64,000 nucleotides of DNA. It comes from Polyangia bacterium. Lineage in GTDB: Bacteria; Myxococcota_A; Polyangia; Palsa-1104; SHYY01. Shown piece after piece: positions 5,353-62,859 of this stretch; positions within the stretch are counted from its first letter, which is position 1, and every line of letters starts with the position of its first letter. The notes below the pieces were generated by a model. That model saw only the letters and a list, made by a program, of their open reading frames with translations, did not search any database and was not told where the DNA came from. The DNA is taken from NCBI GenBank assembly GCA_036263495.1, contig DATAGU010000153.1, positions 4,611 to 68,610 on the forward strand, read 5' to 3'. The position numbers and the translations under genes are program-made.

Positions 5353-6333
5353 GTGATCATGGCGATCAAGACCGAGCTCGACCTCGGGGCGCTCGGCCAC
5401 CTGCTCGCGCCGCTCGATCTGCGCCCGCGTCGCCTGCGAGGGCTCGAGGAGGGGACGGTCAATTCCAACTACCGCGTGGAGACCGACGGCGGGCCGGTGT
5501 TCGTGCGGATCAACGAGGGTAAGTCCGAGTCCGACGTGGGCTACGAGGCGGCGCTCCTCTGGCACCTCGGGGTGCGCCGGTTCCCGACGCCGCAGCCGCT
5601 GCGCCGCGTGGACGGCGTGCCGTTTCTCCTCTATCAGGGCAAGCCGGTGACGGTGTTCCCGTGGGTCCTGGGGCGGCACGTCGACGAGGCCCACATCACC
5701 CGCTCGCACACCATCCAGGTGGGCCAGGTGCTCGGCGAGCTGCACCGCGCCACGGCGAGCTTTCGCCGGCGGCGCGACGGGATCTACACGTTCGACCACA
5801 TCGTCAAGCGGGTGGAGGGGATGCGGGGGGAGCCGCGGGTCGCCGAGGTGCTGCCGATCCTGGACGAGGAGATCACATACCTCGAGCAGGCGCGCGCCAA
5901 GGGTCTGCCGGCGGGCACGATCCACGGCGACCTGTTCCCGGACAACGTGCTCTGGCGCCACGGTCGGGTGTCCGCGGTGCTCGACTTCGAGCAGGCGTCC
6001 TTTGGCAGCCTGGTCTACGACCTGGCGGTGACGATCCTCTCCTGGTGCTGGAATGGCGCGGACCTCGACGACGCGCGCGCGCAGGGGATGGTGCTCGGGT
6101 ACGAGCGGGCGCGGCCGCTCGAGCGGGTGGAGCGGGAGGCGCTGTTCGACGAGGCCCGCATGGCGGCGCTGCGGTTCACGGTGACCCGGCTGACGGATGT
6201 GTTCCTGCCCGCGCTGCCCGGCGCCGAGCGGCTCGGCAAAGACTACCGCGACTACCTCGCCCGGCTCGAACGGCTGCGCACGAGCCTGCCGGGCCGGGTG
6301 CACGCCTGGTTCGCGGCCTCGCCGCCCGGCTGA
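5353..6333 (+). CDS. Phosphotransferase of the homoserine kinase type II / APH family
   Basis: GTVNSNYRVETD nucleotide-binding brace, HGDLFPDNVLW catalytic motif and DFE metal site. Confidence 0.7.
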   Translation: MIMAIKTELDLGALGHLLAPLDLRPRRLRGLEEGTVNSNYRVETDGGPVFVRINEGKSESDVGYEAALLWHLGVRRFPTPQPLRRVDGVPFLLYQGKPVTVFPWVLGRHVDEAHITRSHTIQVGQVLGELHRATASFRRRRDGIYTFDHIVKRVEGMRGEPRVAEVLPILDEEITYLEQARAKGLPAGTIHGDLFPDNVLWRHGRVSAVLDFEQASFGSLVYDLAVTILSWCWNGADLDDARAQGMVLGYERARPLERVEREALFDEARMAALRFTVTRLTDVFLPALPGAERLGKDYRDYLARLERLRTSLPGRVHAWFAASPPG

Positions 6334-6911: not shown

Positions 6912-7961
6912 ATGAGTGAGCCCATCTTTTCCGAACCGGGGGCCGAACCGGCCGAACCGGGGGCCGAACCGGCCGCCGATTCGGCCCCCGCGGCAGGGCC
7001 TCCTTCGCCGCCGCCGCCGCCCTTCGACAATCCCGCCTGGGAGGGCAAATACCATGAGGAGCTCGAGCTCCTCCTGAACCCGCGGCAGCTCGGGGACAAG
7101 ACCCTCCTCCTCCTCGTCACGCTCGCGCTCTTCGTGGCGTCGTCCTGGGTCTCCGACCTCGAGACCTCGATGCGCAAGCTGCTCCTCCTCGTCGGCGTGC
7201 TGTTCTTCCATGAGGCGGGGCATTGGATCGGCATGCGCGCGTTCGGCTATCGCGACGTGCGCATGTTCTTCATCCCCTTCTTCGGCGCCGCCGTGTCGGG
7301 CGCGCGGGCCGGCGCCGCGGGGTGGAAGGAGGCCGTGGTGCTGCTGCTCGGGCCGCTGCCCGGGATCTGCGTCGGCCTCGGGTTCGCGGTCCATCAGGTG
7401 GTGGGCGGCGATCTATCGTCCTGGATGCGGGAGCTCGCCCTGTACCTCCTCTTCGTCAACGGGCTGAACCTGCTCCCGCTCGCCCCGCTGGATGGGGGGC
7501 GGCTCTTCCAGCTGGTCTTGTTCTCACGGCAGCGGCACCTCGAGATCGCCTTCATGGCGCTCGGCGCGCTGGCCCTCCTGGTCGGCGGGCTCCTCACGTC
7601 GAGCTGGGTCCTGGCGATCTTCGGCTTCTTCCTCCTGCGCGGGCTGCCGCACATGTGGCGCCTCATCCGTGAGGCGGCGCGGCTGCGCGAGCGTTTTCCC
7701 GGGCTCCCGGCCGAGGCTCATCTCCTCGGTGACGAGGAGTGCCGCGCGCTCTTTTTAGCGGCGCGCGACGTCCTGCCCGAGCAGCTCCTGCCCCGGCGAG
7801 GGGCGATGGCGCCCACCATGGCCAACATCCTCGAGCGCACGTCGCAGCACCCGCCCGGGTGGTTGGCGTCGCTCGGGATCCTGCTCGTGTGGGGCGTGGC
7901 CTTGCTGGTGATGCTGGGGAGCGCGGCGATCATCGTCGCCCACTCGCCCGCCGCCGCGTAG
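6912..7961 (+). CDS. Site-2 protease family (peptidase M50) membrane metalloprotease
   Basis: HEAGHW (HExxH) and NLLPLAPLDGG (LDG) motifs, multiple TM segments, Pro/Ala-rich N-terminus. Confidence 0.8.
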   Translation: MSEPIFSEPGAEPAEPGAEPAADSAPAAGPPSPPPPPFDNPAWEGKYHEELELLLNPRQLGDKTLLLLVTLALFVASSWVSDLETSMRKLLLLVGVLFFHEAGHWIGMRAFGYRDVRMFFIPFFGAAVSGARAGAAGWKEAVVLLLGPLPGICVGLGFAVHQVVGGDLSSWMRELALYLLFVNGLNLLPLAPLDGGRLFQLVLFSRQRHLEIAFMALGALALLVGGLLTSSWVLAIFGFFLLRGLPHMWRLIREAARLRERFPGLPAEAHLLGDEECRALFLAARDVLPEQLLPRRGAMAPTMANILERTSQHPPGWLASLGILLVWGVALLVMLGSAAIIVAHSPAAA

Positions 7962-23763: not shown

Positions 23764-26121
23764 TCACCTCGCGTCGTTGAGGAGCACCGTCACGCCGGCC
23801 TCATACGTCGCCACGGCCAGATCCGGCTTCCGGTCGCCGTTGAAGTCTGCCACCGCCACGCCGAAGGCCCCGGGCCCAGCGACGAAGAGACCCGGCGGCG
23901 GCCGAAACGCGCCCCTCCCGTCCCCGCGGAGGATCACCACGTCGTTGTTCCACGCCCGACTCGCGACCAGGTCCACCTGGCCATCCCCGTCGAAATCCCC
24001 GGCCGCCAGCGAGACCGGCAGCGCCCCGCCGGGATAGCCCACCGACGCCCGGAACGTCCCGTCCCCGACGCCGAGGAGCACCTGCACCGTGAAGTCGGTG
24101 TTGGCGAAGAACACGAACGACGTGCTGTGATCGGCCACGGCGAGGTCGTCCTTGCCGTCGCCGTTGAAGTCCCCCACCACCAGCGACGCCGGATGCACGC
24201 CCGCGGCATAGGAGACCGCCTCCTGAAATAGCCCACCCCCCATGCCGAGGCGCACGCTCACGTCGTGACCATCGTAGTTGGCGACGGCCAGATCGAGCCG
24301 CCGGTCGCCATTGAAGTCGCCCACGGCCACGGCCTTCGGCCCCAGGCCGGCGGGATGATGAACCGCCGCCTGGAACGCGCCGCCCCCGGCGCCGAGGAGC
24401 ACGCTCACGTCGTTCCCATCCGAGTTGGCGACGACGAGATCGACCCTGCCGTCGCCGTCGAGATCCCCGAGCGCCACCGAAGACGGACGCATCCCCGTGG
24501 CATAGGCCCGGGCGGCCGCGAAGCCGCCGCCCCCCGTGCCGAGGAGCACGCTCACGTCGTCACTGGCCCCGTTGGTCACCGCGAGATCCGCCGCCCCGTC
24601 GCCGTTCACGTCCCCCACGGCCACGAACGACGGCTCGCGGCCGGCGGCATGGCTCACCGCGGGCCGGAACGAGCCGTCCCCTGCGCCGACCAGCACGCTC
24701 ACGTCGTCGCTCCCGGCGTTGGCCACGACCACATCGGCCTGGCCGTCGCCGTCGAGGTCCCCCGCCGCCACGGACGACGGCTTCAGGCCCGCGGCATGGT
24801 TCACGTCCCTCGGGAAGGATCCGCCCCCCGTGCCGAGGAACACGCTCACGCTGTTGCTGCTGCTGTTGGCGACGGCGAGGTCGGCCCGGCCATCGCGATT
24901 GACGTCGCCGATCACCACCGCGTACGGGACCAGGCCGGCCGTGTAATGGACCGCCGGCGCGAACGAGCCGGTCCCGCCGTTCATCAGCACGCTCACGTCG
25001 CCGCCACCGACGTTGGCGACCGCGAGATCGTCCTTGCCGTCGCCATCCAGATCCCCCGCCGCCACGAACTGCGGGCGGGCGCCGGCCGCATATTCGGCGG
25101 CGGGGTCGAACCGACCGCTCCCCGTGCCGAGCAGCACCTTCACCCCGCTCCCCTGGTCGGCGAAGAGGTCGGCGTAGGCGACCGCGATGTCGTCATGGCC
25201 GTCGCCATTGAAGTCCCCCACCGCCACCGAGATCGGCTTCGGGCCCGCCGGGTAGTGGCTGGCGTCCTCGAAGGCGCCGTGCCCCGTGCCGAGGAGCACG
25301 GCCACCCCGTCGCCGGTCTCCACGCCATCCTCGTAGGCCACGGCGAGGTCGGCCTTGCCGTCGCCATTGAAGTCCCCCACCGCCGCCGCCACCGGGTTGA
25401 CGCCGGCGGGGTAGGGGACCGCGGCCAGGAGAGACCCGTCCCCGGCGCCGAGCCGCACGCTCACGGCCGGCGGACCGGCGGCGACGAGATCGTCCTTGCC
25501 ATCGCCGTTGAAGTCCGCCACCGCCAGGGCGTAGGGCACGGTGCCGCCGGGGTAGTCGACAGGCGCCCGGAAGGATCCGTCCCCCGTGCCGAGCAGGACG
25601 CTCACGCCGTCGCCCCCCACGGCGAGGTCGGCCTTGCCGTCGCCGTTGAAGTCCGCCACCGCCAGGGAGCGCGCGCCGAAGCTCACGTCGTGATGGACGG
25701 GGAGCAGGAACGCTCCGCTCCCCGTGCCGAGGAGCACGCTCACGTCGTGGCTCCCGTAGTTCGCGGTGACGAGGTCGATGTGGCCGTCGCTATTGAAGTC
25801 GCCGAGGGCGATGGCCCGGGGGGTCACGCCGGCCGGATAGTTCCGGCCCACCGGGCCGAAGCTTAGAGGCGTCGTCTGGGCGACGCACTGGCGCAGCGTC
25901 GTCCCTGCCATCTGCGCGGCGGGCGCACACACGCCGCTCTCGCAGTCGGCGCTTGTACGGCAACTGTGGCCTTCGCCACAGCGCGAGCAAGGGCCGCCAC
26001 AATCTACGTCGATCTCGTCGCCGTCGAGGAGGCCGTTGCGGCACGAGTCCTTCTTCGAAGAGCAGCCGAGCATCCCGGCGCACACCCCGACCAGGACAAC
26101 GGCGATACGGAATGTCTTCAC
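23764..26121 (-). CDS. FG-GAP/VCBS repeat lipoprotein (beta-propeller) with an N-terminal Cys-rich module
   Basis: MKTFRIAVVLVGVCAGMLGCSS lipobox; more than 12 repeats of GDFNGDGKADLAV...VSVLLG. Confidence 0.8.
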   Translation of the reverse strand: MKTFRIAVVLVGVCAGMLGCSSKKDSCRNGLLDGDEIDVDCGGPCSRCGEGHSCRTSADCESGVCAPAAQMAGTTLRQCVAQTTPLSFGPVGRNYPAGVTPRAIALGDFNSDGHIDLVTANYGSHDVSVLLGTGSGAFLLPVHHDVSFGARSLAVADFNGDGKADLAVGGDGVSVLLGTGDGSFRAPVDYPGGTVPYALAVADFNGDGKDDLVAAGPPAVSVRLGAGDGSLLAAVPYPAGVNPVAAAVGDFNGDGKADLAVAYEDGVETGDGVAVLLGTGHGAFEDASHYPAGPKPISVAVGDFNGDGHDDIAVAYADLFADQGSGVKVLLGTGSGRFDPAAEYAAGARPQFVAAGDLDGDGKDDLAVANVGGGDVSVLMNGGTGSFAPAVHYTAGLVPYAVVIGDVNRDGRADLAVANSSSNSVSVFLGTGGGSFPRDVNHAAGLKPSSVAAGDLDGDGQADVVVANAGSDDVSVLVGAGDGSFRPAVSHAAGREPSFVAVGDVNGDGAADLAVTNGASDDVSVLLGTGGGGFAAARAYATGMRPSSVALGDLDGDGRVDLVVANSDGNDVSVLLGAGGGAFQAAVHHPAGLGPKAVAVGDFNGDRRLDLAVANYDGHDVSVRLGMGGGLFQEAVSYAAGVHPASLVVGDFNGDGKDDLAVADHSTSFVFFANTDFTVQVLLGVGDGTFRASVGYPGGALPVSLAAGDFDGDGQVDLVASRAWNNDVVILRGDGRGAFRPPPGLFVAGPGAFGVAVADFNGDRKPDLAVATYEAGVTVLLNDAR

Positions 26122-26482
26122 CGTGAGACCCCTTCACCCGAGCAGCGGTAGGTCGCTGCTTCTATGCTCAAGCAGCATCGATGCCAGTCACCGCGCGGCC
26201 TCTGATGTGCAGGGTCGCTCCGCGCTCTGGGGTCCTCGGCCCACGCTGATGTCGCTGGGCCGAGCGGTGCTCCAGTTGCCTGCGGAGTCGCGCTCCGGAC
26301 CCTGCACATCAGAGGCCTCGCACACGCTCGGCAGGATCGTACGGGGAGCCGTATCTGCGACGGCGATTCAGGACGTCGCGCGCGGTGCGTGCGGGACGGG
26401 GGCAGCGGCTGGAGCGGGCGTTGTGCTTTTTTGAAGGGCCTCAGGGGGGGCGAGGCCTGCCGCGTCCGACGGCGGAGTGGTT

Positions 26483-26950
26483 CTATCCCTTTTCCATGGG
26501 GTCCCCGTGTTCGGCGCCGGGATAGATGTATACGACGGACAATTCTTCGTCCCGACGCGCGCCGGTCTTTGCGTACAGCGCCTGTGCCGCCAGGTTCCCT
26601 GCGCCCGTGAGGACGAACGCTTCATGCAGCCCTTCGGCCGCGACGATCTCACGCACATGCGTCATCAGACGCATGCCGACGCCGCATCGACGTGCATCGG
26701 CTGCCACATCCACCTCATACACGAACAATTGGGCCGGACGCTGGTCGATCCGTTCCAGGCGGTAGGCCCAGACAAAGCCGAGCAACCGTCCCGCCGATTC
26801 GGCGACGAGCAGATAGTGCGCGGGGTTCGCGAGCAGCTGGGCCGCGTACTCGATCGAGACCTGCGCCGATTTGTGAGCGGCGGCCACGGCCACGAGCAAG
26901 CGCTCGTCGCCAGGCGCCAGTCTGCGAGTGCAAACTTGCATGAGCTTCAT
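26483..26950 (-). CDS. GNAT family N-acetyltransferase
   Basis: RRCGVGMRLMTHV (Q/RxxGxG/A acetyl-CoA motif). Confidence 0.7.
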   Translation of the reverse strand: MKLMQVCTRRLAPGDERLLVAVAAAHKSAQVSIEYAAQLLANPAHYLLVAESAGRLLGFVWAYRLERIDQRPAQLFVYEVDVAADARRCGVGMRLMTHVREIVAAEGLHEAFVLTGAGNLAAQALYAKTGARRDEELSVVYIYPGAEHGDPMEKG

Positions 26951-27065
26951 GTGCCACGATCCGCGTCTTCAGAGAAGCGCGGCTCCGCCCACGTCGCCAG
27001 GCCATGCCCCACCGCCATGCGATGGTCAGGAGAGTGAGAGTCTAACGAGCTGGCAGAAAGGCATG
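26951..27065 (-). pseudogene. Duplicated toxin leader plus the first ~18 toxin codons, fused directly upstream of the GNAT gene
   Basis: 27006-27060 matches 29062-29120 and 61932-61975 (..catgcgatggtcaggagagYgagagtct..). It encodes MAWRRGRSRASLKTRIVAH (compare MALRRWRTLSCIRQHSL of the intact toxin), then shifts frame into GNAT. Confidence 0.5.
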
Positions 27066-27094
27066 TTTCGCGGGAGCGGGCGTGAGTGCGGGCG

Positions 27095-27673
27095 TTACTC
27101 GCCGACCGGCTTGAAGTAGGCGCCGACCAGGCCCTTGTCTTCGACCAGCGCCTTGAACTCGGCGGAGACCAGGTCGTGAAGCAGGCACTGCTTGCATTTG
27201 AAGAGATGGTGGCCGTCGGTGCTGCCGGGTTTGAAAGCATACTCTTCGACGATCATGATTTCCCCATCGGAATACCGCCGGACCTTCGAGCGCTCTTCAT
27301 CTAGGCAATCGACGATGTCGAGTATGTTCACAACCTGGAAGCGCCCAGGCCCATCGTGGGCGAGTGGTAAGAGTTCAATCCCGTCGCCGATAAGGGGTGC
27401 CAAGACCTCTGCCGCGCGATTTGAGAGAGCCAGACCATGACCCATGAGACCGATGAAGTCGACGGGCTTGCCGCGATTCTGCCGCACTGTGGCCCGCGTC
27501 CACTCCATGGGCACGGGTTCCCACCAGTCTGCACAGCGTACGCCCTCTGACAGCCTCCCGAAGATTGGAGACCATCCGCCAGGCCGGGATCCTAGAACGG
27601 TCAGCAGGTCATCGTGCTTATCTGGATTTGGATCCAGACGAAAAATCTTCGGCGGTGGAGAACTTTGGATCAT
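27095..27673 (-). CDS. Putative immunity protein for the adjacent AHH-nuclease toxin
   Basis: The ATG overlaps the toxin's TGA as ATGA (27670-27673). 192 aa, no signal peptide. Homologous 3' fragments recur at 59398-59652. Confidence 0.5.
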   Translation of the reverse strand: MIQSSPPPKIFRLDPNPDKHDDLLTVLGSRPGGWSPIFGRLSEGVRCADWWEPVPMEWTRATVRQNRGKPVDFIGLMGHGLALSNRAAEVLAPLIGDGIELLPLAHDGPGRFQVVNILDIVDCLDEERSKVRRYSDGEIMIVEEYAFKPGSTDGHHLFKCKQCLLHDLVSAEFKALVEDKGLVGAYFKPVGE

Positions 27674-29061
27674 GGAGGAAATGCTCCGTTCTGTATCTGT
27701 TGTGCAATGTCCCGCAACGCCTCGATCATCTTGGCACGCTGACCACTCCTCTCGGCCCGCAGGAGGCGAAAAAAAACTTCTCGAATCGCCGCCTTCATAT
27801 GGAGCCCGCGCCCCACATGCTGGCTCTGTGTCAGCACGACACCATTGTCCACGCTGTTGACGTCGATGCCGAACCGATCGAGGATTTCGCGTGCATCCTC
27901 CGCCTCGCGGTGCGTGCTTGGGACGATATGGTGTACTGCCTCGCTGGAGGCCAATTTCCTCCCGAGTTTCTTCTCGAGTGCTGCGCGTAGTCGGTCGGCA
28001 TTGGCGGATGTATCCCACTGCTGCGTCGAGGTGAAGCCGGGCGGCCGGCTACCACCGCCGCCAACCGAGTTGGTGCCGCGCAATCCCTGGGCGCGTGCCG
28101 TCTGCGCCGGCGTGAGTTCGCGTAGCGCGACATGAAGCATGGCCGCCGCCTGACCCATCCGGCGAGCTTCCACGAGCGCCCAGACCTCGACTTCGCTGAG
28201 CGCCAACGTCCTCGCCGTGGCTCCCGTGCCGATGACGAGCGCCAACGGGCCGCCGCCCGCACTGGTGGCGGTGACGGCCCAATACGCTTGCCCCATGCCC
28301 GGCCCTTGGGATGCCCCACGCCGCAGGAAGTCCACCAGCCGCCCGAGCCCCGACAGGTTCCCGAGTTCCTTGAGGAGCTCCGGGCCATGACCCACCAGCC
28401 GGGCGGCCGTCCACGCGGTACTGACCAGCGCCGCGGCCTGGATGCCGGCGTTGCCGGTCGCGATGCCCTTGATGGTGTCGACGAGGCTCTCCGTCTTGCG
28501 CCAGGCATCGGCGTGCAGCCTCCGCGCCTCGTCCGGCGCACGGTCCATCCAGAAGGGATCCTGTCTGAGTTCGCGGAAGCCGCGCCAGGTGAGGTCGAGC
28601 GCGCCGGTGTCGTAGTCGTTGCTGAGGTTGATTTTGACCGGCGGTGAACCGGCGCCAGGGCTGCGCTCGCACAAGAGGACCGAGAGGTTGAAGGAGGCGA
28701 AATCTCGGCCGTAGGCGATGGCCCGCCGGAGAGCGGCCTGGGCCTCGGGTCCAGCATCGGGCACATCGCCGAGCAGGGAGGCCAGATACTCAAGATGCTG
28801 ATCGAGGGTCTCGTAGTGGGTCTTCCAGGAACCAGTGAAGTAGGGCGCGACCTCCTGAAGCATGAGCGACATGCCGAGGAGATCCCGCCCGAGGTCTTCC
28901 AAGGGCGGTGGGACGCTGCCATCCGAGAAGGCGAGACTGGGCGGCGGCTCGGCCAAGGCGGGCCTGCTCGCAGCAAGGCATCCGAGGACCATGAGCCAGC
29001 GCCAGCCAACAAGAGAATGCTGGCGTATGCAGGAAAGGGTTCGCCAACGTCGCAAGGCCAT
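27670..29061 (-). CDS. Secreted polymorphic-toxin-like protein with a C-terminal AHH (HNH/EndoVII-fold) nuclease domain
   Basis: Sec signal MALRRWRTLSCIRQHSLVGWRWLMVLGCLAASRPALA|EPP, and a C-terminal AHHIVPSTHREAEDAREILDRFGIDVNSVDNGVVLTQSQHVGRGLHMKA motif. Confidence 0.65.
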   Translation of the reverse strand: MALRRWRTLSCIRQHSLVGWRWLMVLGCLAASRPALAEPPPSLAFSDGSVPPPLEDLGRDLLGMSLMLQEVAPYFTGSWKTHYETLDQHLEYLASLLGDVPDAGPEAQAALRRAIAYGRDFASFNLSVLLCERSPGAGSPPVKINLSNDYDTGALDLTWRGFRELRQDPFWMDRAPDEARRLHADAWRKTESLVDTIKGIATGNAGIQAAALVSTAWTAARLVGHGPELLKELGNLSGLGRLVDFLRRGASQGPGMGQAYWAVTATSAGGGPLALVIGTGATARTLALSEVEVWALVEARRMGQAAAMLHVALRELTPAQTARAQGLRGTNSVGGGGSRPPGFTSTQQWDTSANADRLRAALEKKLGRKLASSEAVHHIVPSTHREAEDAREILDRFGIDVNSVDNGVVLTQSQHVGRGLHMKAAIREVFFRLLRAERSGQRAKMIEALRDIAQQIQNGAFPP

Positions 29062-29135
29062 GCTTCACCTCGATGCGATGATCGGGAGAGCGAGAGTCTA
29101 GCGAGCTGGCACCAAGGCATGTTTCGCGGTGCAGC
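29062..29135 (-). promoter_or_regulatory. Conserved 5' leader of the toxin gene (three copies in the window)
   Basis: The ~75 nt upstream of the toxin ATG are near-identical to 27006-27065 and 61932-61985. Confidence 0.4.
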
Positions 29136-29171
29136 CTCGGCGGCGAGGGCATCTCGGCGCAAGGCTGCCTG

Positions 29172-29470
29172 ATGGTGGATCGACCATGTCGACATGATCG
29201 CAGGATATGTCGACATGGTGGATCGACCATGTCGACATGGTCGCGGGATATGTCGACATGGTCACGGGATATGTCGACATGGTCGGGGGATATGTCGACA
29301 TGGTCGGGGGATATGTCGACATAGTCGCGGGATATGTCGACATAGTCGCGGGATATGTCGACATAGTCGCGGGATATGTCGACATGGTCGCGGGATATGT
29401 CGACATGGTGGGTCGACTATGTCGACATGGTCGCGGGATATGTCGACATGGTGGATCAACCATGTTCACA
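29172..29470. repeat. 21-bp tandem repeat array (~14 units, consensus ATGTCGACATGGTCGCGGGAT) containing the palindrome ATGTCGACAT
   Basis: Direct reading shows a near-perfect 21-nt periodicity. All six frames are open (heptapeptide artefact ORFs MSTYPAT and YVDMVAG). Confidence 0.9.
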
Positions 29471-29523
29471 TGGTGTGGTTACAGGTGCGATATAGGGTTT
29501 ATTATCCTATAATCATAAAATTC

Positions 29524-29552
29524 TTGACCTGCGGCATGGATCCTCTTTTAAT
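29524..29552 (+). promoter_or_regulatory. Sigma70-like promoter TTGACC-N17-TTTAAT in an AT-rich stretch
   Basis: TTGACC 29524-29529, 17-nt spacer, TTTAAT 29547-29552, located 38 nt upstream of ATG 29590. Confidence 0.4.
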
Positions 29553-29589
29553 GATCCTGTTTTATTTTACATCGGGTGAGGGGAATACC

Positions 29590-30219
29590 ATGACGAAGAA
29601 AACGGCATCCTCTGCAGAGGCTCCTTCGGCGGCGGAGTCGCTGGAGCCAGCGGCTCCGCCCGTCGATGGGGGGGTCGAGAAGGGCACGGTGGCGGATACT
29701 CGCCGCAGCCCGATGGCTCCTCTGGCCAATCTCTATAAGCCACCGGCCACGTATCGTGAGCTCGATGGCGACACGATCCGTGGCTTGAGCAAGATCTCCG
29801 ACTCGCAGAAGGCCGAGCTGCAGCTGGCCGCCCAGCAGGCCATCAGCCAACAGTCGACGATGCAGGCCCGCTTCGGTGAGATCGCGCCGGATACGTCGGC
29901 GTTGAGCGGTCTCTGGCAGCGCTATCAGGACGCCGAGGCGGCGCGACAAACCGCCCTGGCCCAGGTGGCCTATTTTGGTGACATCGCGGCCGTCGCCCTG
30001 CACGACGTTCTTCAGATCCTCTATCTCGTGGACGAGACGGTCCGCGCGCCGGCGGGTCGCAATACGCAGATCGCGAGCGACTTCTCGGCGGTCCTCAGGA
30101 TCTCCGACCAGCGCAGCCAGGCGATCCGCGAGGGGCGGGCGCGCGCTCGCGCGGAGAAGAAGCAGAGCGGCGGCGATGGCAGCCCGGCCGAGCCCCCGAA
30201 GAACGACGAGTCGAAGTAA
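29590..30219 (+). CDS. Hypothetical protein (Ala/Gln-rich, predicted helical)
   Basis: GGGGAATACC precedes ATG 29590. The longer listed ORF 29194..30219 would translate the tandem array and is rejected. Confidence 0.5.
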   Translation: MTKKTASSAEAPSAAESLEPAAPPVDGGVEKGTVADTRRSPMAPLANLYKPPATYRELDGDTIRGLSKISDSQKAELQLAAQQAISQQSTMQARFGEIAPDTSALSGLWQRYQDAEAARQTALAQVAYFGDIAAVALHDVLQILYLVDETVRAPAGRNTQIASDFSAVLRISDQRSQAIREGRARARAEKKQSGGDGSPAEPPKNDESK

Positions 30220-30394
30220 CACCAGCGGACGCTGGCGAGTTCGATATCCTCTGCCGGTTCCATGGTCCTGGATCCCCGCTCGGGTTCAAGCCCATGGGGG
30301 CGCCGAGATGTTCCCCTGTGGGACGGTGGCGTCTTCCCTTGCAGTAGGGAATGGATCTGCTTATTTTCAATGAAAAATTTGCGGGGATCAGAAG

Positions 30395-30820
30395 ATGGCT
30401 GAGTCGACGGCTGGGTCCAGCGGCGGTGGCAAGGCGTTCATCGCGGACAAGAGTCAGTGGCCTTTCGTGACGCTGCTCACGCCCAAGGGCGAGATCGACG
30501 TGGGGAGCTTCTTCTCCATCATCGACTCCTGCCTCGAGCGGCAATCCACGTTCGTCGTGCTGCACGACATTCGCGGGATGGGGTCCCTCTCGCCGCTGCA
30601 ACGAAAGCAGTTCTCGGAGTACATCAAGAGCCGGGAAATGTCCCTGAAGCAGTACATCGCGGCGCACGCGGTGGTGGTCAGCTCGGCGATCGAGCGCGGG
30701 ATCGTGACGGCGGTGTTGTGGGTGAGCCCGCCGCCGTTCCCGGTGCGCGTCTTCACCTCGCCGACCGACGCCGAGACCTGGGTCCGGGGGGAGCTGAAGA
30801 CGCGCTTGATGCGAAAGTAG
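30395..30820 (+). CDS. Hypothetical 141-aa protein
   Basis: Clean ORF with codon usage like its neighbours; no motif recognised. Confidence 0.45.
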   Translation: MAESTAGSSGGGKAFIADKSQWPFVTLLTPKGEIDVGSFFSIIDSCLERQSTFVVLHDIRGMGSLSPLQRKQFSEYIKSREMSLKQYIAAHAVVVSSAIERGIVTAVLWVSPPPFPVRVFTSPTDAETWVRGELKTRLMRK

Positions 30821-47264: not shown

Positions 47265-47603
47265 AGAGACGTGGCCACGGGGCCATTCGACATCGCCATG
47301 AGGCCATTCGACGTGGCCACGGGGCCATTCGACGTCGCCATGAGGCCATTCGACGTGGCCACGGGGCCATTCGACGTCGCCAAGAGGCCATTCGACATCG
47401 CCAAGGAGCCATTCGACATCGCCACAGAGCCATTCGACATCGCCACGGGGCCATTCGACGTCGCCATGAGGCCATTCGACGTGGCCACGGGGCCATTCGA
47501 CATCGCCAAGAGGCCATTCGACATCGCCAAGGAGCCATTCGACGTCGCCACAGGGCCATTCGACATCGCCAAGAGGCCATTCGACGTCGCTACCAGGCCG
47601 GAC
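47265..47603. repeat. 21-bp tandem repeat array (~16 units, consensus GCCATTCGACRTSGCCAYGRG), related to the 29.2-kb array
   Basis: Perfect 21-nt periodicity, GACGTC/TCGAC cores, 13/21 positional identity with the array A unit. It is intergenic between NUDIX (stop 47632) and rhomboid (start 47190). All frames are open, giving artefact ORFs PFDVATG and DVEWPLG. Confidence 0.9.
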
Positions 47604-59191: not shown

Positions 59192-59464
59192 CGCTTGTCG
59201 TCCTCCGGCCTGGGCCTGCGGAGAGGGGTGGGTGATCAGCCTCGAATCTCGCCCATTCCATAACACGCAGGTGTGTGGCGGTTCAAGAAAACCGTTGTAA
59301 ATTCAGGGGGGCTCCGCCCCTCCGCCCCGGCGAGCGCGAGCCTCCGCAGCGCCCGCGCGCTCCCACTCCCTTCGTATCATTGTTATGGTGTTATGGTTCG
59401 CGGGGAGGGCGTGAGAGCGGGCGTCCATCGCCGACCGACTGGAAGTAGGCGCCGACCCCCGCCA

Positions 59465-59652
59465 TCGACCGGTGCTCCGACGGTGACATTTCGAGCGTCA
59501 AGAAGTACGCCTTCAAACCCGGCAGCACTGGCGGCCGCCACCTCTTCAAGTGCAAGCCGTGGGGGCTTCACGACCTGGTCTCCGCCGAGTTCAAGGCGCG
59601 GGTAGAAGAAAACGGCCTGATCGGCGCCTACTTCACCCCCGTCGGCGAGTAG
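59465..59652 (+). pseudogene. 3' fragment of an immunity gene homologous to 27095..27673 (orphan immunity remnant)
   Basis: Encodes ...SDGDISSVKKYAFKPGSTGGRHLFKCKPWGLHDLVSAEFKARVEENGLIGAYFTPVGE*, compared with ...SDGEIMIVEEYAFKPGSTDGHHLFKCKQCLLHDLVSAEFKALVEDKGLVGAYFKPVGE*. A second, minus-strand 3' stub (GVGAYFQSVG..., ~59398-59445) abuts it tail-to-tail. Confidence 0.5.
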
Positions 59653-59820
59653 CGTCCGCCGGACGGCGGCGTGGCGGGTGGCGCAGGGGTCGGAACTCCT
59701 GGCGGAGATGGGCAGGCCGTCGGGGCTCGGCCGCGAGCCCCGACGGTTTCCGGACGAAGAGGGGATCGACATCGGCTCGGCGTCGGCCGAGATGGTGGCG
59801 ACTTCAGGGCCGTCCTGCGA

Positions 59821-60171
59821 TTACGAAATCGAGAACTCGACTTCGATGAGGCTCATCTTTCCCGGGATATTGGTGCTCCACTGGCCGGTAAACCGTCCGC
59901 CGTAGCTGGCTGCGATCGTGGGACCGATCTTCTGCGCCTCGTCGTTATTCCAGAGGGGGCCGGCGGGCACCATGCATTTGAACTTCGTGGGACCCGTATT
60001 GGGATCGGCAGGCAACACCACGTCCACAGTGCTCATGACACTGGGAACGACGGTGCGCCATTGGCCGTTGAACGTGCCGCCGTGAGCGGCCGCCACGGCC
60101 TTGCCCTTGACTTGGGCATCTTCGTTGTTCCAGATCGGACCGGCGGGAATACTGATGGTGTAGGTCGACAT
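59821..60171 (-). CDS. Small tandem-repeat (2 x ~55 aa) lectin-like protein
   Basis: AAGGAGAGAG precedes ATG 60171. The two repeats PAGPIWNNEDAQ...GGTFNGQWRTVVP and PAGPLWNNDEAQ...GGRFTGQWSTNIP are clearly internal duplicates. No signal peptide. Confidence 0.5.
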   Translation of the reverse strand: MSTYTISIPAGPIWNNEDAQVKGKAVAAAHGGTFNGQWRTVVPSVMSTVDVVLPADPNTGPTKFKCMVPAGPLWNNDEAQKIGPTIAASYGGRFTGQWSTNIPGKMSLIEVEFSIS

Positions 60172-60556
60172 GGGGCTCTCTCCTTGTTGGGTGGGCCGCC
60201 TTCTATGAAGACGCGCCGGTGGCGAATTCCAACGGTCGCCCTTCAATAACGGTGGACCCCTACGGCCAACGCTCAGCGCAATCGACGCGATCGGCGCCAT
60301 CTTCGTCCGTACCGACCGAATCGTCGGACCCAGCATTGGTGACGACTGAATCCGAGCGCTCTCATTTCTGGAGAGACATCCATCTCGTCACCTATGCAGG
60401 AAGATCTGAAAGAAATCGCCACCACGCGGGCCAGGGCGTAGCCGGTGTGGACTCCCGCCGCCGGCATCGTGCGAAGAGTCGCGCATAAAGCGAGCCCTCC
60501 CTGTCTCTAGCCCTTGAGGGCTTGTTCCGCCTCTCTCAACACAGGAGAACCCCACC

Positions 60557-61499: not shown

Positions 61500-61931
61500 C
61501 GAGACGCCGTAGGCTCTCCTATCTTCTCCCAGGCGAACGCCCGAGTCGGGGTTCGTGAGCGCCTCGATCGGACCCGGGCGCCAAGGAGCGTCGGCCTCTA
61601 CGAGGAGCGGCAGCACCGGGATGCTGGCAGCACGGGCGGCATCCACCTCGAAAGGGATCCTGTCTGAGTTCGCGGAAACCACGCCAGGCGAGATCCAGCG
61701 CGCCAGTGCCGTGATCGTTGCTGATGTTCGGTTTGATCAGCGGCGAGCCGGCGCCCGGGCTGCGCTCGCACAAGAGGACCGAGAGGTTGAAGGAGGCGAG
61801 CCGGACGGCGGCTCGGCCAGGGCGGGCATGCTCGCAGCAAGGCATCTAAGGATCACGATCACGAGCCAGCGCCAGCCGAGAGGAGAACCGCCGCGTGCGC
61901 GGGAAAGGGTCCGCCAACGTCGCCAGGCCAT
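61500..61931 (-). pseudogene. Frameshifted and internally deleted N-terminal remnant of the AHH-toxin gene family, with its conserved leader
   Basis: ORF 61737..61931 gives MAWRRWRTLSRARGGSPLGWRWLVIVILRCLAASMPALAEPP (toxin signal peptide). The shifted frame 61519..61845 contains ASFNLSVLLCERSPGAGSPLIKPNISNDHGTGALDLAWRGFRELRQDPF, which matches toxin residues ~125-175. About 230 bp are missing relative to the 28.7-28.9 kb region. Confidence 0.6.
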
Positions 61932-61977
61932 GCTTCACCTCCATGCGATGGTCAGGAGAGCGAGAGTCTTCTCTGGA

Positions 61978-62859
61978 TCAATCCTGGCTGTCGTCCAGGG
62001 GGCGTCCCAGCGCCTGCGGTGCGGCGGCGGCCCGCGGGCGCAGGATGAGGGCGATGAGGGTGGCGATGTAGGGGATGGCCTGCACCGTGCCGGGCGCCAG
62101 AAGATGAAGCCCTCCGGCCGAGGACTGGAGCTGCAGCTCGATGGCCTCGGCGCCGGCAAACAGGAGGCAGCCCAGGGCGGCTCCGAACGGCCGCCAGCCG
62201 CCGAGGATCATGGCGGCCAGCGCCACGTAGCCTCGCCCGGCCGACATGCCGGCCACGAACTGGTGCTGATCAAAGGCCAGCCACACCCCGCCCAGGCCGG
62301 CCAGCGCGCCGGAGGCGAGCACGCCTTGCCAGCGCAGGGGCGCCACCGCGATCCCTTGCGCGCGGGCGGCCTCGGGGTGCTCGCCCGCGGTGCGCAGGCG
62401 CAGGCCGAGGCGCGTGTGATGGAGGAGCCCATGAACCAGGAGGAGCGCGACCAGGGCCGAGGCGCCGAGCGGGAGGCTCGACCCGAGCGCCGGGATGCGG
62501 GGCGAGTTCGACGCGGAGTGATAGATGAGCTTGAGGAAGAACCGCGTGAGCCCCGAGGCGAGCAGGGTGACGGCCACGCCGCAGACGATCTGATCGGCGC
62601 GCAGCCGGATCACCGCCATTCCATAGATCGCGGCCAACGCCACGCCGGCCGCCATCCCGCCGGCGATGCCAAAGAGCGCGCTCGTGCTCTCCCGCGCGAT
62701 CACCGCGCCCACGAACGCGCCGACCAGGAGCAGGCCTTCGAGCGCGATGTTGATGACGCCGGACCGCTCGCACAGGAGGCCCCCCAGGGCCGCGAGGAGG
62801 TAGGGCACGGAGATGCGCAGCGTCTGCACGAGCAGACCGGCGAGGAAGGCGACGCTCAT
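61978..62859 (-). CDS. ABC transporter permease (BPD_transp_2 / nucleoside-sugar-BMP type)
   Basis: 8-10 TM helices; the stop overlaps the upstream permease's start by 4 nt. Confidence 0.8.
   Translation of the reverse strand: MSVAFLAGLLVQTLRISVPYLLAALGGLLCERSGVINIALEGLLLVGAFVGAVIARESTSALFGIAGGMAAGVALAAIYGMAVIRLRADQIVCGVAVTLLASGLTRFFLKLIYHSASNSPRIPALGSSLPLGASALVALLLVHGLLHHTRLGLRLRTAGEHPEAARAQGIAVAPLRWQGVLASGALAGLGGVWLAFDQHQFVAGMSAGRGYVALAAMILGGWRPFGAALGCLLFAGAEAIELQLQSSAGGLHLLAPGTVQAIPYIATLIALILRPRAAAAPQALGRPLDDSQD

Follow-up and report, generated by a model that had tools for sequence, protein, structure and literature searches.

The stretch of DNA analysed here (64,000 nt from a Polyangia bacterium; hereafter the window) raises the question of why a gene for a GNAT acetyltransferase stands directly behind a short copy of the 5′-end of a toxin gene, and whether this copy serves the acetyltransferase gene, belongs to a device that exchanges genes behind a common leader, or is the remnant of a toxin gene that has been lost. 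All the genes concerned lie on the minus strand.

A repeat of ~90 nt, reaching from −68 to +22 around the toxin ATG, occurs on this strand in three copies in the 64-kb window. Copy A (29040–29129) covers −68 to +22 relative to the ATG at 29061 of the intact toxin gene, and carries two conserved blocks, GCGAAACATGCCT and CGCTAGACT, and then the SD sequence GAGGTG 5 nt before the ATG. Copy B (26984–27073; hereafter stub B) would correspond to a lost toxin gene from −68 to +22, with its ATG at 27005, and copy C (61907–61969) is truncated at −38, with both upstream blocks missing; only 8 nt lie between it and the stop of a gene for an ABC permease. Formal alignment of the copies, which had been proposed as a check, placed their similarity above chance: local alignment of A with B gave 86% identity over 88 nt (E 4e-24), and B aligned with C at 90% identity over 63 nt (E 1e-18). 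Moreover, the 24-mer CTCTCNCTCTCCNGANCATCGCAT matched the window exactly three times against 0 matches expected from shuffles, a 25-mer across the SD sequence and the ATG matched copies A, B and C only, and neither of these two window searches found a solo leader. The original prediction that the leader and first toxin codons recur in three places, far above chance, is thus borne out for the threefold repeat, but not for the lengths of the copies. In copy C, which had been drawn at 61932–61985, the shared sequence upstream of the ATG is no longer than 38 nt, and positions 61970–61985 overlap the stop codon of the ABC permease gene and bear no relation to the leader. Likewise, the ~10–18 toxin codons said to be shared come down to seven (MAWRRGR) in copy B, where similarity ends at ~+22. 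Beyond this point the identity of stub B to nine intact or pseudogene toxin copies is 0.49, compared with 0.71 among the intact genes themselves and 0.51 for shuffles. An extension of the toxin similarity to ~+45 was considered and dropped, as the comparison with intact genes puts the end at ~+22.

The intact toxin gene A (27670–29061, minus strand) was defined from its translation and Pfam matches and encodes 463 aa, consisting of an N-terminal signal peptide (..PALA|EPPP), an N-terminal region of ~340 aa and a C-terminal AHH nuclease. Residues 372–456 belong to the AHH family (PF14412, 38.6 bits against the Pfam cut-off of 22.3), and the motif ..EAVHHIVPSTH.. is present in toxin A and invariant in 11 relatives. 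The protein is 100% identical to the NCBI entry 'MAG TPA: AHH domain-containing protein [Polyangia bacterium]'; a contig index has no entry for the exact protein, probably owing to a later start in the public annotation. NCBIfam had no model for any part of the toxin and Pfam none for the ~340-aa N-terminal region, Pfam found no Rhs, filamentous haemagglutinin or PAAR domain in the toxin, and no PAAR/VgrG/Rhs or T6SS context was seen around it. A cysteine that could belong to a lipobox follows ..LG in toxin A, P0003, L002 and copy C, and the same position is F, L, Y and L in P0002, P0004, P0005 and P0006, respectively, while the signal-peptidase-I site ALA|EPPP is conserved among relatives. 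As orthologues that are 76–81% identical do not all keep the putative lipobox cysteine, the toxin is probably exported by Sec rather than being an obligate lipoprotein. The start of the next gene (27095–27673, minus strand) overlaps the toxin stop (ATGA), and this gene encodes an immunity protein of 192 aa which belongs to Imm11 (PF07791, 36.5 bits against the Pfam cut-off of 22.1) and lies directly downstream of the AHH toxin. A 21-nt spacer, CGCCCGCACTCACGCCCGCTC (27074–27094, minus strand), leads from the Imm11 stop to leader B, and the same tail follows Imm11 in the related locus L004 and at 59.4 kb of the window. The GC3 of the toxin, Imm11 and GNAT genes is 0.68–0.77 compared with ~0.90 in neighbouring genes, which marks them as acquired DNA, or an island.

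The GNAT gene itself (26483–26950, minus strand, annotated ATG at 26950; Acetyltransf_1) is complete and encodes 152–155 aa, and its product belongs to PF00583 (49.2 bits against the Pfam cut-off of 20.7). Eight homologues, 39–52% identical, all start at a methionine that corresponds to the ATG at 26941, three codons inside the annotated start, and the native start is therefore probably the ATG at 26941. The nearest homologues are only 54% identical. Membership of the AAC(3)-I family (NCBIfam NF033083) was rejected, as the score of 62.8 bits falls far short of the equivalog cut-off of 200, and the enzyme is AAC(3)-I-like only. The original prediction had the toxin reading frame shift into the start of the acetyltransferase; we found instead that the ATG at 27005 opens an ORF of 96 codons, which stays out of frame with the GNAT gene and crosses its start, and that GNAT is a separate gene. 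The GC3 of this ORF is 0.47 and that of GNAT 0.76; hence the 27005 ORF is non-coding. The suggestion that GNAT is a displaced effector fares no better, as a complete AAC(3)-I-like enzyme in which no signal peptide was found and whose N-terminus is collinear with those of its homologues does not fit such a role. GNAT is neither fused to stub B nor an effector.

Between the end of stub B and the start of GNAT lie 34–43 nt (at most ~45) of non-leader DNA, and a terminator scan predicted no terminator-like site between Imm11 and GNAT. The SD sequence of stub B is weakened (GGCGGTG), and both upstream blocks match the family consensus at all positions. Because the blocks are intact, the gap is short and no terminator-like site is predicted, GNAT is probably transcribed from upstream, either by read-through or from the stub, and stub B may supply it with a promoter. 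The stub is nearer in sequence to the leader of L002 (94%), to copy C (90%) and to the leader of L003 (90%) than to copy A (86%), and this closeness to the leaders of other loci suggests that the unit lost at B was a diverged paralogue and not a fresh duplicate of A. The join of Imm11, stub and GNAT is also present in L001, a separately assembled JGI contig that is 99.75% identical to the window over 2.8 kb, and GNAT is found in this position only in the window and in the near-identical L001. Of the seven positions at which the two differ, five lie inside 27008–27077, in the stub, and two of these are beside the −35-like block; gene conversion among leader copies, relaxed constraint and mixed-read assembly at a repeat are all possible sources.

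What the leader may do can be approached from its conservation. Eight full copies share the blocks GCGrAACATGCCT (−68 to −56) and CGyTAGrCT (−41 to −33), which are separated by a variable stretch of 11–12 nt and followed by a CT-rich untranslated stretch of ~30 nt, by GGAGGTG five nt before the ATG and by the nearly invariant toxin start ATGGCCTGGCGACGTTGGCGG (ATG GCC TGG CGA CGT TGG CGG). Among intact copies, leader identity is 0.82–0.94 compared with 0.74–0.82 at third codon positions, L009 being an exception, and −68 to +22 is the best conserved DNA of the unit, with 0.89 at +1 to +22 against 0.71 just after. To judge by this pattern of conservation, the leader would combine a putative promoter in the two blocks with a short 5′ UTR, a ribosome-binding site and the first, positively charged residues of the signal peptide. 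In all eight full leaders the two blocks contain G(A/G)AAC-N17-CG(T/C), and the AAC-N17-CGT spacing recalls promoters of ECF sigma factors; the sigma factor is a guess, because the bare motif occurs in the window at chance frequency (13 against 11.5 expected) and no sigma-70-type site is predicted. Scans for sigma-70 promoters and terminators on the minus strand near the leaders found nothing, and an Rfam scan of 26000–30500 at a permissive threshold returned only sub-threshold noise of the eukaryotic-miRNA type. Secondary structure of leader and tail in a single-sequence fold was no better than in shuffles (z −0.5). A consensus fold proposed a hairpin in which UCGCUCUCC pairs with the ribosome-binding site and would mask it; this hairpin, 94% paired with one compensatory pair, may form, but is not backed statistically, as 58 of 500 shuffles reached its covariation score.

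The exact 24-mer pattern of the leader had 0 matches in 185,579 representative genomes, and a protein profile of the toxin family found 0 relatives in the same set. In metagenomes, by contrast, the proposed search for the leader in other genomes did find it. All 16 toxin relatives come from Polyangia MAGs and metagenomes, a metagenome scan with the leader added one further leader (L002), and the DNA of ten related loci was recovered from metagenomes. The toxin–Imm11 unit of ~2.05 kb occurs in unrelated genomic contexts. In L003, L007, L008 and L009 homology to the window runs from about −80/−150 to 3–15 nt past the Imm11 stop, with unrelated flanks on either side (xanthine-dehydrogenase-like genes, TrkA and others). 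Because homology is limited to the unit and the flanks are unrelated, the toxin–Imm11 pair is a discrete unit of ~2.05 kb that is found in different places.

A full or partial leader follows the Imm11 stop directly in five independent units, namely at window B, in L005, L006 and L011, and in L009 as seen from the upstream side. The junction that recurs in independent loci consists of the Imm11 stop, ~20 nt and a leader, which is truncated to a variable extent and then gives way to unrelated DNA. The L005 stub extends from −68 to +17 and contains in-frame stops (ATGGCCTAGCGACGTTAG), and that of L006 from −31 to +24; since the next gene lies on the opposite strand in both loci, the adjacency of GNAT to a leader in the window is incidental. 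L011 has a full leader after Imm11, up to the contig end, whereas L004 and the relic at 59.4 kb keep no more than the spacer and ~10 nt from the beginning of the leader, and L003, L007 and L008 have no 3′ leader stub. Viewed from the other side, the intact toxin of L009 is preceded by a flank of the after-Imm11 type (..CACGCCCC..CCCGCG..) and not of the solo type (..GAGGCTGCC..), and the contig starts there; in L004 a fragment of Imm11 (aa 109–129) is joined to a leader at −30, followed by toxin aa 192–463 and an Imm11 gene of its own. The stubs of L005, L006 and L011, together with this reverse view in L009 and L004, indicate that units stood head to tail and that the downstream one was often cut to ~90 nt.

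The points at which the copies break off fall at +12 to +24 after the toxin ATG. Stubs end at +17 in L005 (~7875), at +22 in the window (26984) and at +24 in L006 (~3175), an internal deletion starts at +12 in L004 (~2302), and the DNA downstream of these break points is mutually unrelated. A shared sequence after the stubs (GAAGAC...) or a copy of the upstream region was rejected for window B and L006 by alignments against shuffles; a repeat after the stub is present in L005 only, where it matches L005's own flank. This is a 62-nt direct repeat (5646–5708 and 7874–7935, 80% identical) that brackets the toxin–Imm11 unit and its 3′ stub, with a few nt of microhomology at the junction (CGTAG / CGTTAG). 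In the Logan contig L011, positions 1–27 are the same as 2050–2076 (GGTGAAGCATGGCCTGGCGACGTTGGC, leader), making a unit of 2049 nt, and these identical ends fit units in tandem, a circle, or an assembly that broke off at a repeat. Toxins with internal deletions were also seen: L004 (2213–3132) is without aa 5–191 and L006 (1359–2534) without aa 158–227, and in both the AHH domain is kept and an intact Imm11 gene comes next.

We consider it likely that copy B is the scar of a head-to-tail toxin–immunity array, in which the promoter-and-start segment was duplicated with each unit and the next unit was lost. Toxin–Imm11 units would have been duplicated in the Polyangia lineage, placed head to tail, carried to new sites and later eroded; copy B would be the rest of a unit that once stood behind toxin A and Imm11 and was lost from about codon 8 onward, and copy C and two Imm11 fragments at 59.4–59.7 kb would be further wrecks of the same family. 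The former presence of a full second unit at B is inferred from the sequence. Two complete units side by side were found in none of the recovered loci, L009 starting and L011 ending in the repeat. Because B is only 86% identical to A, the array would have been composed of already diverged units, or B came by recombination. The original proposal of a recombination scar or cassette module therefore survives as far as the scar is concerned, since the junction recurs in independent loci, but not as a cassette that places successive genes behind the leader. Such cassette exchange finds no support, given the opposite orientation of the next gene in L005 and L006, the mere ~10 nt of leader in L004 and at 59.4 kb, the stub-less L003, L007 and L008, and the restriction of GNAT to the window and L001. 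One set of observations tells against simple decay of an array: three stubs end within 7 nt of each other, and random deletions in a gene of 1.4 kb are not expected to cluster in this way. The 62-nt direct repeat of L005 is likewise outside the reach of a simple array-decay model.

The break-point clustering is what a mobile cassette would account for, in which −68 to +22 would be a cis-acting recombination site or landing pad and units would move as leader–toxin–Imm11–leader′, for example as circular intermediates entering a resident leader, the 3′ copy then being a product of transfer and not of decay. Break points at +12 to +24 in four independent loci, the same 27 nt at both ends of the 2049-nt unit of L011 (compatible with a circle or a tandem), the 62-nt direct repeat flanking the L005 unit and stub, the superior conservation of −68 to +22 over all other DNA of the unit and the unrelated genomic contexts of the units all agree with this explanation. 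However, we regard it as improbable, as Pfam and NCBIfam searches showed no recombinase among the ORFs scanned within ~4 kb of the toxin locus in the window, and the same holds for the precomputed Pfam labels on genes called in the related loci; moreover, no 3′ copy is present in L003, L007 and L008, the 5′ limit differs from copy to copy (−150, −104, −82, −38, −30 and −12), the stop codons and deletions in the stubs resemble decaying DNA, and the window contains no solo leader and no significant leader secondary structure (z −0.5).

A different role for stub B would be that of a captured promoter, the stub having been kept as promoter and 5′ UTR of GNAT after GNAT's own upstream region was lost at the junction. 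The blocks of B are fully consensus, while in the stubs of L005, L006 and L011, behind which no same-strand gene is seen, the block at −68 to −56 is absent or mutated; only 34–43 nt without a terminator-like site separate the stub from GNAT, and the independent L001 has the same layout. Nevertheless we think promoter capture unlikely, because the stub takes up five of the seven sites that distinguish the window from L001, which looks like relaxed constraint or gene conversion and not like purifying selection, because the out-of-frame 96-codon ORF of the stub over the GNAT start would interfere with GNAT translation, and because the ribosome-binding site of the stub is degraded (GGCGGTG); read-through from the toxin–Imm11 operon would explain GNAT expression equally well. 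The join could also be a chance similarity or an assembly artefact, in which reads of leader copies were collapsed or became chimeric beside GNAT. Repeats are error-prone in a metagenome-assembled genome and the L001 differences cluster in the stub, but the E values of 1e-18 to 4e-24 with 0 matches expected, the presence of the join in the separate JGI contig L001 and analogous joins in other samples make this very improbable indeed.

The array-scar reading that we favour has parallels in known systems. AHH–Imm11 pairs, greatly expanded in myxobacteria, are a major class of toxin–immunity genes with many duplicates in Myxococcus xanthus, where some are linked to T6SS and some belong to SitA lipoprotein families (PMC12077181, PMC8546572), and M. 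xanthus DK1622 has 14 ahh loci and 20 imm11 genes (PMC12077181); an association of Imm11 with Tox-AHH has also been listed (PMC3482391). The M. xanthus pairs resemble the present one in that a PF14412 toxin is directly followed by an overlapping PF07791 immunity gene (PMC12077181; PMC8546572; PMC3482391), and they too have many paralogues in each genome, surplus or orphan immunity genes, and features that point to horizontal acquisition. They differ in that no model covers the N-terminal ~340 aa of the window toxin and that its lipobox cysteine is not conserved. SitA toxins carry a lipoprotein signal with a conserved lipobox cysteine and are delivered by outer membrane exchange (PMC5562445, PMC8546572), and the class is further set apart by an N-terminal escort domain of ~375 aa (SitA1/2 to SitA7) and by TraA/TraB-dependent transfer. 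Membership of the SitA lipoproteins was dropped for the window toxin, because the lipobox cysteine is missing from four close orthologues and the ALA|E site is conserved.

The short conserved pieces in front of downstream units are reminiscent of cdiA/rhs arrays. Behind cdiA and rhs genes, orphan modules form arrays of toxin–immunity units, each with a short piece of conserved pre-variable sequence; the retained pieces provide homology for recombination, and truncated relics are left. In such orphans the piece comes from within the coding sequence for a very large delivery protein, and promoter and start are lacking, whereas here the unit is a whole small gene and the piece consists of the promoter region, the ribosome-binding site and the first seven codons. 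We thus rejected membership of the CDI/Rhs orphan arrays, given a repeat made of non-coding leader and 7 codons and a toxin without an Rhs, haemagglutinin or PAAR domain. Solo-LTR-like or Campbell-type scars are similar insofar as a ~90-nt direct repeat brackets a unit of ~2 kb (from A to B, and in L005, L006 and L011), but neither an integrase or transposase nor a solo copy was seen, and what repeats here is simply the 5′ end of the gene itself. An integron gene cassette was also rejected, with no integrase in the scanned neighbouring ORFs and no attC-like structure (z −0.5).

Other relics of the family lie further along the window. Behind copy C is a toxin pseudogene (61642–61931, minus strand), in which only aa 1–38 and 121–170 can be recognised and which has an internal deletion. 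At 59393–59457 (minus strand) an Imm11 remnant holds the last 11 codons, the tail and the initial ~10 nt of a leader (CCCCGCGAAC), followed by unrelated DNA, and it abuts a remnant on the plus strand (59470–59659) with the last 62 codons of another Imm11 gene. The window thus contains one live AHH/Imm11 pair and four wrecks of the same family. The two opposed Imm11 3′ ends that abut at 59393–59659 are a scar of the inverted-duplication type. Between the Imm11 relics and the toxin pseudogene lies an ORF for an MVL mannan-binding lectin with two repeats (59821–60174, minus strand; PF12151, E 1.8e-16), the GC3 of which, 0.78, is below that of its surroundings.

Several features of the neighbouring sequence were also recorded. 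Upstream of leader A, a tandem array of 12.6 copies of the 21-nt unit ATGTCGACATGGTCGCGGGAT (29186–29452) takes up the whole space between the toxin A gene and a divergently oriented ORF of 209 aa without a family match, and each unit holds the 10-bp palindrome ATGTCGACAT. L006 and L002 carry a similar motif in single copy, TTGACATGGTCGC, ~130 nt upstream of the toxin ATG; from this likeness the array looks like an amplified piece of the far-upstream region of the toxin, and its period of two helical turns suggests a protein-binding array. A second intergenic array with a 21-nt period, 15.4 copies of GACGTCGCCACGGGGCCATTC at 47268–47590, is unrelated to it in sequence. Directly downstream of GNAT is a gene for an FG-GAP repeat protein of 785 aa (23764–26121, minus strand) with tandem repeats of ~147 nt (49 aa), and the intergenic region between the two holds a 24-nt inverted repeat (26193–26216 and 26298–26321, 23 of 24 positions matching), which may be the edge of the low-GC3 island.

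Stub B is most likely an ordinary product of toxin–immunity gene turnover in a little-studied lineage. The main gain is for annotation, in that the 27005 ORF is not a gene and GNAT is neither a fusion nor an effector; besides, the conserved 5′ control region can be used to find further members of the family. Nothing but the crowding of break points directly behind the start codon has the potential for something new. There is a slim chance that −68 to +22 is a recombination substrate by which whole toxin–immunity genes are stacked or exchanged, maybe via circles of ~2.05 kb; if true, this would explain the stub ends at +17 to +24 and the contig closing within the leader, and would amount to a cassette system of Polyangia for small secreted toxins that is anchored on a promoter and works without a recombinase. 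On the array-scar reading, uncultured Polyangia would undergo the same turnover of toxin–immunity genes, by gain, tandem stacking and erosion, as shapes the kin-discrimination repertoires of Myxococcus.
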